From a virus (Duplodnaviria > Heunggongvirae > Uroviricota > Caudoviricetes), in IMG/VR virus record IMGVR_UViG_2660238318_000005: DNA of 8,237 bases. The stretch is one strand, 5' to 3'. The notes beneath the pieces were generated by a model. The model made no database searches, had not been told where the DNA came from, and worked only from the letters and a program-made list of their open reading frames with translations. Position 1 is the stretch's first letter. Each line of letters starts with the position of its first letter. Positions 969 to 8,237 of this stretch are shown here, one piece after another. The position numbers and the translations under genes are program-made.

Positions 969-2356
969 CAACTCCAGTATGGCGTAACGATGACCTTGAA
1001 GGCGCTGTCATCGGCGCGTTCTTTCTGCGCGGAGCAGATCCTGAAGTGATGGATATTCTGGCCACACTGCCAGCGGACGTTTTTTCTGTACGAGCGTATC
1101 AGGATATCTATACAGGCATCTGCAGACAGGCCCGTGTTTCAGGAGTGATTGACCCCGTGCTGTTGTGTAATGAGATGCCGGAACTTGCCCCGGTGATTAC
1201 TGATACCGGGCGTAAAACCTGGGTGAAGTCTTCACTGGAGCACTATGTTGCAGCGTTGCGGCGCAATGCCGCACTGCGCGATGCAGAAAAAACACTGAAT
1301 GAGGCGCTGCAGAAATTACGTGATGCGCATACCTGTGAAGCAGCTGAAGATGCCCTGAAGGATGCGCAGAACATGATGGTCACACTGTCGACAGGAAAGG
1401 GCGTCATTCAGCCGGTACATATTGATGATGTGCTTCCGGAAGTGGTTGAGCGTGTTGAATGCCGGAATCAGGGGCTGGAGAAATCCAGGACGTTGATGAC
1501 CGGTATTGATGAACTGGACGCAAAAACAGGCGGTATGGAGCCCGGAGACCTGGTATTCATTGCCGCCCGTCCTTCGATGGGGAAAACCGAACTTGCGCTG
1601 GACATCATCGACAAGGTGACTGAGCAGGGGCATGGTGTGCTTCTGTTCACCATGGAGATGGCGAACATCCAGATTGGTGAACGTATGGTGTCTGCGGCTG
1701 GAGGGATGCCAGTATCACGCCTGAAATCTGTGGCTCACTTTGAAGATGAAGACTGGACGCGTTTCTCACAAGGGGTGGGGCGGATGACCGGGCGCAATAT
1801 CTGGATGGTGGACCAGGCGAACCTGGCCATTGATGAGATATGCGCAACAACGAAACACCACCTGATTAAATATCCGGAAACGGCGCTGGTGGTGGTTGAT
1901 TATCTCGGGCTGATAAAAAACCGAACCACGGGGCGTCATGACCTTGCCGTGGGTGAAATCTCAAAGGGGCTTAAAGGCCTGGCAAAATCCGGTGGTTTTC
2001 CGTTGATTGCGCTGAGCCAGCTCTCCCGCGGTGTGGAGTCCAGACCCAATAAACGTCCCATGAACTCAGACCTGAAAAATTCCGGAGAAATAGAGGCGGA
2101 TGCAGACATCATTCTGATGCTTTACAGGGATGAAGTGTACAACCCGGATACGCAGGCCAGGGGCATCGCAGAAATCAATATCACGAAACAACGTAACGGT
2201 TCTCTGGGAACGATTTACCGGCGTTTTTATAACGGACATTTTCTGCCTGTGGACCAGGAAAGTGCACGGGTGCTTTCCACTCCCATGAAGCCCGGCAATC
2301 CGCGCAGATACAGTAATAAACGAACTGACAGCAGTAAGATGGAGCGTTTCTTTTGA
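965..2356 (+). CDS. DnaB-family replicative DNA helicase (phage P-like function)
   Basis: 463-aa ORF with RecA-fold motifs: Walker A AARPSMGKT, Walker B-like LVVVDYLGL, and a QLSRG segment. Start is coupled to the upstream stop by an ATGA overlap. Confidence 0.85.
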   Translation: MTTPVWRNDDLEGAVIGAFFLRGADPEVMDILATLPADVFSVRAYQDIYTGICRQARVSGVIDPVLLCNEMPELAPVITDTGRKTWVKSSLEHYVAALRRNAALRDAEKTLNEALQKLRDAHTCEAAEDALKDAQNMMVTLSTGKGVIQPVHIDDVLPEVVERVECRNQGLEKSRTLMTGIDELDAKTGGMEPGDLVFIAARPSMGKTELALDIIDKVTEQGHGVLLFTMEMANIQIGERMVSAAGGMPVSRLKSVAHFEDEDWTRFSQGVGRMTGRNIWMVDQANLAIDEICATTKHHLIKYPETALVVVDYLGLIKNRTTGRHDLAVGEISKGLKGLAKSGGFPLIALSQLSRGVESRPNKRPMNSDLKNSGEIEADADIILMLYRDEVYNPDTQARGIAEINITKQRNGSLGTIYRRFYNGHFLPVDQESARVLSTPMKPGNPRRYSNKRTDSSKMERFF

Positions 2357-2610
2357 ACAACCAGACAATGACTTTTACCCCTGAACAATTGCGTAAACAC
2401 GCGCAGGAAATGCTGCGTCATGCTGAACAACTCGAAAAAACGGGCATAACAAAAGATGCTATCCGTAAAGATATGGTACCCGCGCTTCGGGAACTGATGC
2501 AGGCGAAGCATCGCGCACAGAAAGCAGTAGATGAGCTGGTGGACTGTGTGGCAGAGCTGGAAACCAGAGTCGGAAAGTTTGAAAAACTGGTGCAGGAGGC
2601 GCTGCGCTGA
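2353..2610 (+). CDS. Hypothetical small protein, predicted helical/coiled-coil, unknown function
   Basis: ORF in the ren/nin position after the helicase. TTG at 2353 has GGAG 8 nt upstream and overlaps the helicase stop; an alternative ATG at 2368 would give 80 aa. No recognisable motif. Confidence 0.45.
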   Translation: MNNQTMTFTPEQLRKHAQEMLRHAEQLEKTGITKDAIRKDMVPALRELMQAKHRAQKAVDELVDCVAELETRVGKFEKLVQEALR

Positions 2611-2705
2611 TGCGCCATGAGTTTGTTTTGCCCTGGCTTGTGCGCGATCATTATGTCCCTGGTGGAAAGCCCGGGATAAAAATCACCGAACCGGAGAGTA
2701 TTTGA
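2610..2705 (+). pseudogene. rusA: rusA remnant: 31-codon in-frame internal-deletion derivative of a RusA Holliday-junction resolvase gene
   Basis: Peptide MRHEFVLPWLVRDHYVPGGKPGIKITEPESI matches the N-terminus (EFVLPYPP) and C-terminus (VRGQLVPGGRLGIKITELGCA) of the intact rusA at 3862-4227, also at nucleotide level (gaatttgttttgcc; ggataaaaatcac). The roughly 90 codons between are missing. Confidence 0.75.
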
Positions 2706-2905
2706 TGAGCGTCAAAATTCAAACGATACCGGAACTGCTTATCCAGACACGAGGTAATATGACCGAAGTTTCACGAATGCTGAACTGTAATCGCGCCACG
2801 GTAAGAAAATATGCTGAAGATAAAGAGGGCAAAGGGCACGCCATTGTTGATGGTGTTCTGATTGTTCATCGTGGATGGGACAGGGGTAAAGACAGTGATG
2901 CGTGA
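2705..2905 (+). CDS. ninH: NinH-like protein
   Basis: 66-aa product [59 protein letters not shown]... aligns along its length with lambda NinH as I recall it. Start overlaps the rusA-remnant stop (TGATG); it sits directly upstream of Q as in lambdoid phages. Confidence 0.85.
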
Positions 2906-3278
2906 TATTCAGCAGGTTCTTGAGCGCTGGGGCGCGTGGGTGGCTAATAATCATGAGGATGTGACCTGGTCGTCCATTGCTGCCGGTTTTAAGGGATTAA
3001 TCCCTTCAAAAGTAAAATCCCGCCCGCAATGCTGTGACGATGACGCGATGGTTATATGTGGGTGTATGGCCCGCCTTAACCGGAACAACAACGATCTACA
3101 TGACTTGCTGGTTGACTACTACGTGTTTGGGATGACATTCATGACGCTGGCGCGGAAGCATGGATGCTCAGATGGTTATATAGGAAAGAAGCTACAAAAA
3201 GCCGAGGGGGTGGTGGAAGGAATGTTGATGATGTTGGGTGTCCGGTTAGAAATGGACAAATATATTGAACATCCCTGA
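2898..3278 (+). CDS. Late antiterminator Q, short Q21/QuuD-type
   Basis: 126-aa product with cysteine cluster [16 protein letters not shown]; closely resembles the DLP12 QuuD sequence as I recall it. ATG at 2898 overlaps the ninH stop. A tR'-like terminator follows 87 bp downstream. Confidence 0.75.
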
Positions 3279-3490: not shown

Positions 3491-3500
3491 NNNNNNNNNN
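3491..3500. other. Assembly/scaffold gap (N10)
   Basis: Run of 10 N; flanks are unrelated (tRNA 5' end on the left, mid-ORF sequence on the right). Confidence 0.9.
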
Positions 3501-3861: not shown

Positions 3862-4227
3862 ATGACCGAACGCATAGAATTTGTTTTGCCTTACCCGCCA
3901 ACGGTGAACACCTACTGGCGACGTCGTGGCAGCACATATTTTGTATCAAAAGCCGGTGAGCGTTATCGCCGTGATGTGGCGCTAATTGTTCGCCAGCAGC
4001 GACTGAAATTAAACCTGTCCGGAAGGCTGGCGATAAAGATTATTGCAGAGCCACCGGATAAGCGCCGTCGTGACCTGGACAATATCCTGAAGGCACCGCT
4101 GGATGCGCTGACGCATGCTGGACTACTTATAGACGACGAGCAGTTTGATGAAATCAATATTGTGCGCGGTCAGCTCGTTCCTGGTGGGCGGCTGGGGATA
4201 AAAATCACAGAACTGGGGTGCGCATGA
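3862..4227 (+). CDS. rusA: RusA-family Holliday junction resolvase
   Basis: 121-aa product with RusA hallmarks (RRRDLDN acidic motif, C-terminal GGRLGIKITELG). ATG follows the upstream stop directly (TAAATG). Confidence 0.85.
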   Translation: MTERIEFVLPYPPTVNTYWRRRGSTYFVSKAGERYRRDVALIVRQQRLKLNLSGRLAIKIIAEPPDKRRRDLDNILKAPLDALTHAGLLIDDEQFDEINIVRGQLVPGGRLGIKITELGCA

Positions 4228-4907
4228 ATAACCAGTATTTACAGTTTGTGCGTGAGCAGCTCATTATCGCCACCGCTGATTTGAGTGGGGCAACAAAAGG
4301 TCAGCTTGAAGCCTGGCAAGAGAATGCCATGTTCGATACAGGGCGTTACAGGCGTAAAAAAATCCGGTACCGCGATGAAGTGACTGGAAAAATGATAACG
4401 CGGGATAATCCACCAATCCCGGGAAAGCAATCGCTGGCGAAGGGGACGTCAATTCCTCTGGTCAGTCCGGTTGAGTTTTCGACATCATCGTGGCGGCGGG
4501 CTGTTCTGTCTCTTGAAGAGCACTATAAAGCCTGGTTGTTGTGGTGTTACAGCGGGAGTATTTGTTGGGAATATCAGATCGCGATAACACAGTGGGCGTG
4601 GAATGAATTTAATGCTCAATCCGGTACCAGAAAAATTGCAGGGAAAACGCAGGAACGCCTGAAAAAATTAATCTGGCTGGCGGCGCAGGCAGTAAAAGCA
4701 GAACTTTTTGGTGGGGAAGGTTATGAATACCAGGAGCTGGCATTACTGGCGGGAGTGACAACTAAAAACTGGTCCAAAACATTTACTCGTCACTGGGTTG
4801 CAATGAAACACATTTTTCACCGACTGGATAGTGAGGCTTTATTGTTTGTAATGAGAACACGTTCAAAAAAAAGACGGCATTTTCAAAGCAAAGTGTTGCA
4901 AAAGTAG
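4224..4907 (+). CDS. Putative late antiterminator Q, long type (Q82/QuuQ-like?)
   Basis: Assigned by position: directly after rusA (ATGA overlap) and directly before a consensus-like promoter, a tR'-like terminator, a tRNA cluster and a holin. I did not recognise the sequence itself. Confidence 0.5.
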   Translation: MNNQYLQFVREQLIIATADLSGATKGQLEAWQENAMFDTGRYRRKKIRYRDEVTGKMITRDNPPIPGKQSLAKGTSIPLVSPVEFSTSSWRRAVLSLEEHYKAWLLWCYSGSICWEYQIAITQWAWNEFNAQSGTRKIAGKTQERLKKLIWLAAQAVKAELFGGEGYEYQELALLAGVTTKNWSKTFTRHWVAMKHIFHRLDSEALLFVMRTRSKKRRHFQSKVLQK

Positions 4908-5105: not shown

Positions 5106-5181
5106 GGCCCTTTAGCTCAGTGGTGAGAGCGAGCGACTCATAATCGCCAGGTCGCTGGTTCAAATCCAGCAAGGGCCACCA
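5106..5181 (+). tRNA. tRNA with CAU anticodon, most similar to tRNA-Ile2 (lysidine type, ileX/ileZ-like)
   Basis: Cloverleaf by hand: acceptor GGCCCTT/AAGGGCC, anticodon loop CUCAUAA, T-loop TTCAAAT, 3' CCA encoded. Resembles E. coli ileX as I recall it; Met versus Ile2 cannot be settled from the anticodon alone. Confidence 0.75.
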
Positions 5182-5183
5182 AC

Positions 5184-5259
5184 CGCCACTAGCTCATCAG
5201 GAAAGAGCGTCAACCCTTTAAGTTGAGTGTGCGAGGTTCGAGTCCCCGGTGGCGGTCCA
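5184..5259 (+). tRNA. tRNA-like gene with atypical anticodon loop (CCUUUAA: UUU anticodon with C33); identity uncertain
   Basis: Acceptor CCGCCAC/GTGGCGG, D-arm GCTC...GAGC, anticodon stem TCAAC/GTTGA, T-loop TTCGAGT, 3' CCA. The loop lacks the near-universal U33. Confidence 0.55.
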
Positions 5260-5261
5260 GT

Positions 5262-5337
<76 letters not shown>

Positions 5338-5340
5338 TAT

Positions 5341-5415
<75 letters not shown>

Positions 5416-5707: not shown

Positions 5708-5923
5708 ATGAAATCCATGGACAAAATTTCAACGGGCATTGCCTACGGCACCTCCGCAGGCAGTGCTGGCTACTGGTTTTTACAGTGGCTTGATCAGGTC
5801 AGTCCGTCACAGTGGGCTGCGATTGGTGTACTGGGGAGTCTGGTTCTGGGCTTCCTGACTTATCTGACAAATCTGTACTTCAAAATCAGAGAAGACAAGC
5901 GTAAGGCTGCGAGAGGTGAATAA
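5708..5923 (+). CDS. S: Class II pinholin, phage 21 S-type (S21-like), with dual-start motif
   Basis: 71-aa product [30 protein letters not shown]... matches S21 as I recall it; the two Met codons (M1, M4) fit the antiholin/holin pair. Strong RBS GGAGGTGAGG upstream; stop overlaps the endolysin start (TAATG). Confidence 0.85.
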
Positions 5924-5939
5924 TGTCGCCATCATTACG
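5923..5939 (+). pseudogene. 5' stub (17 nt) of an R21-type SAR endolysin gene, interrupted
   Basis: ATGTCGCCATCATTACG is identical to the start of the endolysin copy at 6143; it is followed at 5940 by the GTAAGCG... element instead of CAAGGCTGTT. Confidence 0.6.
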
Positions 5940-6006
5940 GTAAGCGCCCCATCAGCGACGTCTTGTGAAAATTGTCCTGTCTGGCAACAATCGCGCCCAT
6001 CTATAT
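5940..6006 (+). mobile_element. Terminus of a repeated element, proposed IS66-family insertion sequence end (copy 1)
   Basis: GTAAGCGCCCCATCAGCGACGTCTTGTGAAAATTGTCCTGTCTGGCAACAATCGCGCCCATCTATA recurs at 6437-6502; both copies run into N10 gaps. IS66-family ends characteristically begin 5'-GTAA; family assignment is from memory. Confidence 0.4.
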
Positions 6007-6016
6007 NNNNNNNNNN
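6007..6016. other. Assembly/scaffold gap (N10)
   Basis: Run of 10 N between the repeated element end and a holin-internal sequence. Confidence 0.9.
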
Positions 6017-6017
6017 G

Positions 6018-6143
6018 GTCAGTCCATCACAGTGGGCTGCGATTGGTGTGCTGGGAAGTCTGCTTCTGGGGCTTCTGACTTATCTGACGAATCTGTATTT
6101 CAAAATAAGAGAAGATAAGCGTAAGGCTGCGAGAGGTGAATAA
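6018..6143 (+). CDS. S21-type pinholin, 3' portion of a second diverged copy, 5'-truncated by the gap
   Basis: Encodes ...[41 protein letters not shown], with several nucleotide and amino-acid differences from the copy at 5797-5923, so it is a paralogue and not the same locus. Confidence 0.7.
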
Positions 6144-6436
6144 TGTCGCCATCATTACGCAAGGCTGTTGCAGTTGCTATTGGTGGCGGGGCTGTTGCTA
6201 TAGCATCTGTGTTAATCACTGGCCCAGGTGGTAACGATGGTCTGGAAGGTGTCAGCTACATACCATACAAAGATATCATTGGTGTATGGACTGTATGTCA
6301 CGGACACACCGGAAAAGACATCATGCCTGGTAAAACGTATACCGAAGCAGAATGCAAAGCTCTCCTGAATAAAGACCTTGTCACTGTCGCCAGACAAATT
6401 AACCCGTACATCAAAGTCGATATACCGGAAACAACG
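6143..6436 (+). pseudogene. R21-type SAR endolysin (T4-lysozyme-like), N-terminal 98 codons, interrupted after ...DIPETT
   Basis: SAR-like N-terminus ([20 protein letters not shown]) and catalytic region [16 protein letters not shown] (E-x8-D-x5-T). Homology ends at 6436, where the GTAAGCG... element begins. Confidence 0.7.
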
Positions 6437-6502
6437 GTAAGCGCCCCATCAGCGACGTCTTGTGAAAATTGTCCTGTCTGGCAACAATCGCGCCCATCTA
6501 TA
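6437..6502 (+). mobile_element. Terminus of the same repeated element, proposed IS66-family end (copy 2)
   Basis: Same sequence as 5940-6005, again abutting an N10 gap. Confidence 0.4.
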
Positions 6503-6512
6503 NNNNNNNNNN
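6503..6512. other. Assembly/scaffold gap (N10)
   Basis: Run of 10 N. Confidence 0.9.
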
Positions 6513-6513
6513 C

Positions 6514-6540
6514 AAGCGTAAGGCTGCACGGGGAGAGTAA
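6514..6540 (+). CDS. Last 8 codons plus stop of a third S21-type holin copy, 5'-truncated by the gap
   Basis: Encodes KRKAARGE-stop, the same C-terminal tail as the holins at 5708 and 6018, with different nucleotides (GCACGGGGAGAG versus GCGAGAGGTGAA). Confidence 0.5.
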   Translation, partial: KRKAARGE

Positions 6541-6543
6541 ATA

Positions 6544-7173
6544 ATGAAGCATGAAGAAATGAATCAGCGATTCAATCACCTGGAAAATGAAATCACTGAG
6601 CTTAATAAAAAATTGTCGGCGTTGGTGAGTTCTGAAGATGAAAACAAACGCCGCGATGAGCATTATGCGGCGATTTACGATTACTGCCACAAAGTCGCTC
6701 ACGAGACTTTTATGAAGTTTTTGCAGGAAAAGTTTTTACCGGCCGCATTGTCAGAAAAAGAGGCGGCTTACCTGCGGCCTGAGTACGTCATTACGGTTAA
6801 CAGTGCCGGAGAGGAAGAGCATAAAAGTGATTTTATTGCGTCTGCACCGGATAAAGACCAGGAACCCCATCGGCCTTTCAGGGTTTCCTGTGAAGAGGGT
6901 GAGTTCGTCGTTTATGAGAACGGAAAACCTGTCCGGGCATCGCATCATCACTGCCTGAAAATTATTAATCTCGCTATCAGATGCCTGAAAGACGAAAACA
7001 CCAGAGTTATGAAACGCATTGGCCGTTGCATGGGGTATTTGCAGGTGGCGGCAGAGATTGAAGCACTTGCCAGTGGTGCAGACATGGATGCTGCGGTGCG
7101 GGAGGCTCTTCTTCGTGATTTCAATACTCCCCCTTTAAGAAAGAGCCTGATGACTGGATCCAGCCGGGGCTGA
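6544..7173 (+). CDS. Hypothetical 209-aa protein between holin and endolysin; no recognisable family, no signal peptide or TM segment
   Basis: Uninterrupted ORF with GGAG upstream of ATG 6544, starting 3 nt after the holin stop. Hydrophilic, with an N-terminal coiled-coil-like stretch (NQRFNHLENEITELNKKLSAL) and an HHHC motif. Confidence 0.5.
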   Translation: MKHEEMNQRFNHLENEITELNKKLSALVSSEDENKRRDEHYAAIYDYCHKVAHETFMKFLQEKFLPAALSEKEAAYLRPEYVITVNSAGEEEHKSDFIASAPDKDQEPHRPFRVSCEEGEFVVYENGKPVRASHHHCLKIINLAIRCLKDENTRVMKRIGRCMGYLQVAAEIEALASGADMDAAVREALLRDFNTPPLRKSLMTGSSRG

Positions 7174-7238
7174 CTTATCTTAAAAGGCGTATATAAGTTG
7201 GCTCGTTATTTGTTGCCGATAAATCCTGATAAATATCC

Positions 7239-7772
7239 ATGAGCGCAAAAATCAAATACGGCCTGTCGGCTGCTGTTCTGGCGCTGATTGCCGCAGGCGC
7301 GTCTGCTCCCCAGATACTTGACCAGTTTCTGAACGAAAAAGAGGGTAATCACACAACGGCATACCGTGATGGTTCTGGCATATGGACCATCTGTCGTGGT
7401 GCCACAATGGTGGATGGTAAGCCTGTCATACCGGGAATGAAGCTGTCGAAGGAAAAATGTGACCAGGTTAACGCTATTGAACGTGATAAGGCGCTGGCAT
7501 GGGTGGAGCGCAATATTAAAGTACCTCTGACCGAACCCCAGAAAGCGGGTATAGCGTCATTTTGCCCCTATAACATTGGCCCCGGTAAGTGTTTCCCGTC
7601 GACGTTTTATAAGCGGCTGAATGCCGGTGATCGTAAGGGCGCATGCGAGGCGATTCGCTGGTGGATAAAAGATGTTGGGCGCGATTGCCGCATACGTTCA
7701 AATAACTGCTATGGACAGGTTATTCGTCGTGACCAGGAAAGCGCATTAGCCTGTTGGGGGATAGATCAATGA
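7239..7772 (+). CDS. SAR-type endolysin (glycoside hydrolase family 24, T4-lysozyme-like)
   Basis: Gly/Ala-rich weakly hydrophobic N-terminus ([17 protein letters not shown]) typical of signal-anchor-release domains, then the E-x8-D-x5-T catalytic motif ([16 protein letters not shown]). Stop overlaps the Rz start (ATGA). The RBS is weak. Confidence 0.8.
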
Positions 7773-8173
7773 GCAGAGTCACCGCGATTATCTCCGCTCT
7801 GGTTATCTGCATCATCGTCTGCCTGTCATGGGCTGTTAATCATTACCGTGATAACGCCATTACCTACAAAGAGCAGCGCGACAAAAACGCCGGAGAACTG
7901 AAGCTGGCGAACGCAACCATTACTGACATGCAGCAGCGCCAGCGTGATGCTGATGCACTCGATGCTAAATACACGAAGGAGTTAGCTGATGCGAAAGCTG
8001 AAAATGATGCTCTTCGGCGCAAGCTTGATAATGGTGGTCGGGTGCTCGTCAAAGGAAAATGCCCTGTGCCATCCTCAGCCGAAACCTCCAGCGCCTCCGG
8101 CATGGGCAATGATGCCACCGTCGAACTCTCTCCAGTTGCTGGACGAAACGTTCTCGGTATCCGGGACGGGTGA
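7769..8173 (+). CDS. Rz: Rz i-spanin (inner-membrane spanin subunit); C-terminus possibly truncated by the adjacent IS
   Basis: N-terminal TM segment ([20 protein letters not shown]), then a charged coiled-coil region. Follows the endolysin and contains the embedded Rz1 frame. The stop TGA (8171-8173) is also the first three bases of the IS end. Confidence 0.8.
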
Positions 8174-8183
8174 GGTAGCCTGA
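7989..8183 (+). CDS. Rz1: Rz1 o-spanin (outer-membrane lipoprotein) embedded in the +1 frame of Rz
   Basis: Signal peptide with lipobox LIMVVGC, proline-rich mature part ([16 protein letters not shown]) resembling lambda Rz1 as I recall it, and a strong SD AAGGAG 8 nt upstream. The last codons (..GEVA-stop) are read from the IS end. Confidence 0.8.
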
Positions 8184-8237
8184 GTTTAACGGACACTCCT
8201 TCCTGAAATAGAATGGCATCAGAAGGAGCTAATAATG
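8171..8237 (+). mobile_element. Left terminus of an IS3-family insertion sequence (IS600-like), with the start of its orfA at 8235
   Basis: TGAGGTAGCCTGAGTTTAACGGACACTCC... has the IS3-family TGA-initiated inverted-repeat form, then an RBS GGAG and ATG at 8235. It resembles the IS600 IRL as I recall it, not verified. Confidence 0.5.

Follow-up and report, generated by a model that had tools for sequence, protein, structure and literature searches.

How did the Rz gene of a lambdoid prophage come to end, after 134 codons, on the first bases of an insertion sequence, and what lies at the other end of that element? The question arises at the 3' end of an 8,237-nucleotide stretch of DNA (hereafter the window) assigned to the Caudoviricetes (IMG/VR record IMGVR_UViG_2660238318_000005). 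The window holds only 67 bases of the insertion sequence, and its right side was read in relatives with an identical left junction. The features concerned are the following:

7239–7772, + strand: endolysin gene, 177 aa, hydrophobic N-terminus, Pfam PF00959 (Phage_lysozyme) match
7769–8173, + strand: truncated Rz (i-spanin) gene, ORF of 134 aa, PF03245 match
7989–8183, + strand: Rz1 (o-spanin lipoprotein) gene, ORF of 64 aa in the +1 frame, embedded in Rz, PF06085 match
8168–8170, + strand: last native Rz codon, GGG (Gly134), forming the left flank of the insertion sequence
8171–8237, + strand: IS600 left end (IS3 family), identical to annotated copies at 67/67 positions

The truncated Rz gene and the embedded Rz1 gene

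The endolysin stop and the Rz start (ATG at 7769) overlap in an ATGA motif, and the Rz frame is closed at 8171–8173 by a TGA that the IS600 terminus supplies. At the N-terminus of Rz, residues 4–23 form the hydrophobic stretch of a transmembrane segment, and the periplasmic domain matches the family profile. Pfam PF03245 (Phage_lysis) is covered at positions 1–104 of 126 (E = 2e-23), the C-terminal remainder being absent. Accordingly, a complete distal coiled coil and the C-terminal end, with its Cys and the residues contacting Rz1, are missing from this protein.

Intact Rz orthologues, in phage mEp460 and in E. coli 600468, have 155 residues. The 21 C-terminal residues that they carry (IIRDQTALRTLQEYIRTQCLR), including a Cys in the penultimate region (…TQCLR), are lost here. 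The first-pass annotation had judged Rz short against the roughly 150 residues usual for such proteins, and the alignment bears this out. The lysozyme/Rz region of mEp460 is 95% identical in DNA to the endolysin–Rz stretch of the window. By megablast, homology to Rz genes of phages and of complete E. coli genomes reaches only 8169/8170; beyond the junction, native Rz carries on in the mEp460 alignment as GGA ATC ATC AGA GAC. The same annotation had set out the opposite case, with intact orthologues ending at this very position and native sequence from 8171 onward; the orthologues are found to read on. Most of them have GGA where the window has GGG, and the G at 8170 was considered as an IS-derived base or the product of an imprecise deletion. 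This candidate is ruled out by an intact Rz in a viral contig (L017) that reads GGG ATC ATC at the same codon, so that the G at 8170 is native.

The Rz1 frame starts at an ATG at 7989 and stops at a TGA at 8181–8183. Its sequence displays a lipobox (VVGC, with Cys19) and a PKPPAPPAW motif, and the features that define Rz1 are all present: the lipobox Cys, a proline-rich mature domain and embedding in Rz in the +1 frame. PF06085 aligns at profile positions 1–40 of 41 with residues 19–60 (Pfam, E = 4e-21). Residues 1–60 are native, while the junction and the insertion sequence encode the tail GEVA and the stop. Rz1 of mEp460 has 68 residues and ends in ESSETRQH, an eight-residue tail that GEVA replaces in the 64-aa protein. 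Codon 61 (GGT, 8169–8171) spans the junction; with the GGG allele, it would natively encode Gly too. The frame was previously described as reading four codons into the insertion sequence before stopping at 8183. The stop is indeed at 8183, after 10 further IS bases and at the second TGA, but the four codons are not all complete: of codon 61 the element contributes one base, followed by complete codons for E, V and A and by the stop.

IS600 and its two junctions

The bases at 8171–8237 match IS600 left ends at 67 of 67 positions in 3292 E. coli records (E = 3e-26). A single E. coli genome can carry as many as 43 copies of the 67-nt end, which occurs in chromosomes as well as plasmids and in unrelated contexts, and RefSeq labels the matching places “IS3-like element IS600 family transposase” and “programmed frameshift”. 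A chance match is excluded. The first-pass annotation had proposed that an IS3-family element supplies the Rz stop and the last Rz1 codons, with the TGA at 8171–8173 as its first three bases. It was right on both counts, and the element, which starts at 8171, can now be named. Positions 8171–8197 form a terminal inverted repeat of about 27 nt that is imperfect (19 of 27 positions match between the two ends of the E. coli E2865 copy). The leader carries a ribosome-binding site (AAGGAG), and the ATG of orfA lies at 8235–8237, where the window stops.

The full IS600 of E. coli E2865 (NZ_AP018808; positions 1601–2864 of locus L002) measures 1264 bp, begins with TGAGGTAGCC and ends with CACCTCA; it interrupts ninF and is flanked by a CGC target duplication. 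In relatives sharing the junction of the window, the element is likewise 1264 bp long; its products are an HTH_Tnp_1 protein of 100 aa and an rve protein of 272 aa, or a single fusion of 385 aa. On its terminus, together with the size and ORFs read in the relatives, we assign the element to IS600.

In all nine relatives that reach past the element, its right end adjoins codon 68 of nu1, the gene of the terminase small subunit. The right junction is identical in these nine loci: CACCTCA is followed directly by AACTACTCATTGCC (in longer form, GCCAGTACACCTCA is followed by AACTACTCATTGCCAGATGG). The right flank aligns with nu1 of phage PhiR12_1 from the second base of codon 68 and matches Pfam Phage_Nu1 at profile positions 85–163 of 164. 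In one of the nine (L009), IS600 measures exactly 1264 bp (6403–7666), with GGG as its left flank and AAC as its right. The two differ, and there is therefore no 3-bp target duplication; the eight other loci have the same pair of flanks.

The distance that separates Rz from nu1 in intact relatives is about 0.56 kb in PhiR12_1 and about 1.6 kb in E. coli 600468. Once the losses within Rz (63 bp) and nu1 (about 0.2 kb) are added, the missing DNA comes to roughly 1–2 kb in total. In the relatives, IS600 thus bounds a deletion of this size, which the window, given its identical left junction, probably shares. On the lambda prophage map, cos lies between the lysis genes and nu1, and the N-terminal third of gpNu1 is the winged-helix domain that binds cosB. 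By synteny with lambda, cos was presumably lost with the deleted interval.

The IS600 left terminus adjoins codon 134 of Rz in a lambdoid prophage, its TGA closing the Rz frame, and we propose that the deletion took the last 21 Rz codons, the downstream genes and nu1 up to codon 67. Two same-orientation copies of IS600, one in Rz and one in nu1, could have recombined to produce this arrangement, or IS600 could have caused an adjacent deletion directly. Deletions next to IS3-family elements are known, as in STEC, where the IEE protein takes part (PMC9397093), and an IEE-type excision or deletion would be a further possible route. No intermediate between the intact locus and the deletion was found in a scan of viral contigs.

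The best-surviving alternative, which we nevertheless consider unlikely, is a simple insertion of IS600 into Rz. In that case, a 3-bp duplication would be expected, the rest of Rz (63 bp), cos and an entire nu1 would lie just past the other end of the element, and GGGATCATCAG would be read after it. On simple insertion, IS600 normally gives 3-bp duplications, such as the CGC of E2865; the right side is outside the window, and the event may well have started with a simple insertion. However, in nine of nine relatives that share the left junction, the right end is followed by nu1 codon 68, and a duplication is lacking. The missing duplication counts against a simple insertion and not against the identity of the element. 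In addition, the IS600 right end followed by any three bases (NNN) and ATCATCAG was not found in the scan of viral contigs, a weak test given that this collection is not rich in Shigella. Of the earlier proposal of an IS insertion at the 3' end of the spanin genes, the presence of the element stands; the simple insertion gives way to a deletion junction, read in nine of nine relatives.

It is highly improbable that the Rz–IS600 join is an artefact of assembly or scaffolding, that is, a mis-join at a repeat. The window does contain three runs of ten Ns, two of them preceded by the same IS66-family end, as well as duplicated pieces of holin and endolysin genes. The junction, however, is located inside an uninterrupted stretch (6513–8237), all N runs being upstream, at 6512 or lower, and it recurs base for base in many drafts as well as in several complete chromosomes that were assembled independently. 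Finally, a native gene end, with a naturally short Rz followed by phage sequence from 8171, has nothing in its favour beyond an ORF with a stop codon and is already refuted by the closest orthologues, which run 21 codons longer, by the match of 8171–8237 to a mobile element repeated up to 43 times per E. coli genome, and by the Rz profile stopping at 104/126.

Predicted consequences for lysis and packaging

Gly134 of the truncated Rz aligns with Arg133 of lambda Rz, making the equivalent lambda allele 134X. In lambda numbering, the distal coiled coil CC2 spans 30 residues (121–150), of which 17 are absent from the truncated protein, as is the C-terminal domain containing Cys152. For lambda, 82 lysis-defective Rz nonsense alleles are described, which affect 34 positions distributed over the periplasmic domain (Cahill et al. 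2017, G3, PMC5295617). Only R153 is dispensable; Q151X and C152X are both lysis-defective and accumulate poorly, and residues 143–151 are proposed as the contact with Rz1 (PMC5295617). On the other hand, lambda Rz1 keeps its function when truncated back to residue 55 (PMC5295617). Rz of the window is 70% identical to lambda Rz overall and less so in the tail, which makes the analogy indirect.

By this analogy, the 134-aa Rz is predicted to be non-functional, a non-functional spanin being the likely outcome, and the exchange of the Rz1 tail is probably harmless. Because lambda Rz alleles up to C152X fail, whereas Rz1 still works when cut back to residue 55, it is in Rz and not in Rz1 that the spanin defect is predicted. 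The first-pass annotation had expected C-terminal losses in both proteins to impair the spanin complex. The lambda nonsense alleles support this for Rz; for Rz1 the expectation does not hold, since its domain is kept (1–40 of 41) and lambda Rz1 tolerates loss of the tail down to residue 55.

Independently of the spanin, the prophage is predicted to be unable to package its DNA, because cos and the DNA-binding half of Nu1 would both be gone. In the window, as in most relatives, the ORFs of holin, endolysin and truncated Rz are still unbroken. This is compatible with recent decay and does not prove the loss of all lysis function. One could imagine that the host uses the cassette as an attenuated, spanin-less module for lysis or release, with read-through of the late operon into IS600 coupling the transposase to derepression. 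The one point in favour of such a role is the intactness of the ORFs: holin, 209-aa ORF, endolysin, truncated Rz and chimeric Rz1 are intact in hundreds of S. flexneri assemblies. Two relatives already have a decayed Rz or endolysin, and such a use is very unlikely in our view.

Overall, with a probability of about 0.85, we favor an IS600-bounded deletion that left Rz truncated and predictably non-functional, Rz1 nearly intact and packaging lost: a decay scar in a cryptic prophage.

Window architecture, relatives and known systems

Upstream of the junction, the window looks like a scaffold of short contigs, with runs of exactly ten Ns at 3491–3500, 6007–6016 and 6503–6512. In S. flexneri relatives, a 71-aa holin is followed directly by a 209-aa ORF. 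Because the relatives' holin directly precedes this ORF, positions 5924–6543, and probably also 3501 to about 5700, seem to come from other prophage copies. Such inserted pieces would account for the two different Q-like antiterminators of the window, at 2862–3278 (phrog_79) and 4218–4907 (phrog_304). The same 70-nt end of an IS66-family element, beginning with GTAAGCGCCCC, is located at 5937–6006 and again at 6434–6502, each time before an N run; in E. coli NDM6, this end lies just upstream of an IS66 tnpA. The codon before it, in a phage-21-like SAR endolysin gene, is number 6 in one case and about number 97 in the other. A direct repeat of 143 nt (5797–5939 and 6017–6159, 92% identity) includes the 3' end of a P21-type holin gene and the first endolysin codons; it represents either a pair of paralogous lysis cassettes or two contigs that derive from paralogous prophages.

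Four tRNA genes, for Met(CAT), Lys(TTT), Thr(TGT) and Gly(TCC), are located at 5106–5415, between a Q-like gene and the holin gene, as is typical of lambdoid late regions. The 209-aa ORF (6544–7173), between holin and endolysin, matches PHROGs of unknown function only (phrog_1085, E = 1e-73) and has no Pfam match. It is kept at the same place in all S. flexneri relatives.

S. flexneri SFBU1023, “E. coli” ECMA0423 and five IMG/VR contigs contain the exact 43-mer that spans the junction. An Rz identical over all 134 residues is listed for 311 indexed blocks of public assemblies, and contigs longer than 1 Mb occur in 23 of these blocks. The relatives that have a name are all Shigella flexneri or an “E. 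coli” carrying this prophage, and the junction is absent from RefSeq complete E. coli genomes, where no record covers at least 80% of the query. The gene order of the relatives reads DnaC-like, DnaB, NinH, Q, holin (71 aa), 209-aa ORF, lysozyme (177 aa), Rz (134 aa), IS600, Nu1 fragment (107 aa), large terminase, gpW and portal. Terminase and portal genes are split in several of these loci, and other parts of the prophage decay independently in the relatives.

Four relatives (L003, L004/L011 and L013) carry an IS629-like element nested inside IS600. In ECMA0423 (L004), this IS629/IS1203-like element occupies 1934–3225 (1292 bp), in the opposite orientation and with a CAA target duplication. 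Only some junction-bearing genomes have it, pointing to a later event and a possible sublineage marker. In SFBU1023 (L003, 7100–7240), the Rz start is lost (ATG to ATT) and the transmembrane region of Rz contains indels, while the endolysin of ECMA0423 is frameshifted (L004, 700–1100); some of these differences could be long-read sequencing errors. One further relative (GCA_008973575.1; L007, 2377–3798) has, between Q and holin, an ORF for a 473-aa group II intron reverse transcriptase/maturase (RVT_1 and GIIM) that is absent from the other loci.

Cryptic lambdoid prophages riddled with insertion sequences are a textbook feature of Shigella genomes. The present case is a decay scar of this known kind, whose junction is already in many deposited genomes, and it brings nothing new in kind. 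Its scientific weight is small overall. The Rz–IS600 join nevertheless offers a clean, datable marker of prophage decay in the S. flexneri lineage, one fixed junction across hundreds of assemblies, and an i-spanin truncated in nature for which lambda genetics predicts a null allele. In genome annotation, the entries called “lysis protein” (134 aa) and “Nu1” (107 aa) are fragments on either side of one IS-bounded deletion and should be marked as pseudogenes; prophages with the Rz–IS600–nu1 junction should be classed as cryptic.

Among known systems, the defective Stx prophage of S. dysenteriae type 1 is lambdoid and non-inducible, with an IS600 adjacent to stx (PMC7819885). Prophage and species both differ from the present case, and no toxin genes were noticed in the window. 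The phage mEp460 (NC_019716) and the DLP12-like prophage of E. coli 600468 resemble the locus, with 92–95% protein identity over the 134 retained residues and the same embedded Rz1 architecture; in mEp460, the upstream lysozyme is the same as well. In contrast to the window, their Rz has 155 residues (and Rz1 of mEp460 68), followed by small genes and then by cos and nu1. The lambda Rz nonsense alleles share a premature stop in the distal coiled coil CC2 (PMC5295617). Those alleles are laboratory point mutations, whereas here a natural truncation by an insertion sequence affects a related but diverged Rz, with a predicted effect on lysis. Lastly, the IS600 of E. coli E2865 (NZ_AP018808) has a left terminus identical over the 67 readable bases, and its length of 1264 bp, orfA/orfB organization and programmed frameshift recur in the relatives' copy. 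The E2865 copy is a simple insertion flanked by CGC duplicates, whereas that of the relatives, between GGG and AAC, joins genes that are normally 1–2 kb apart.
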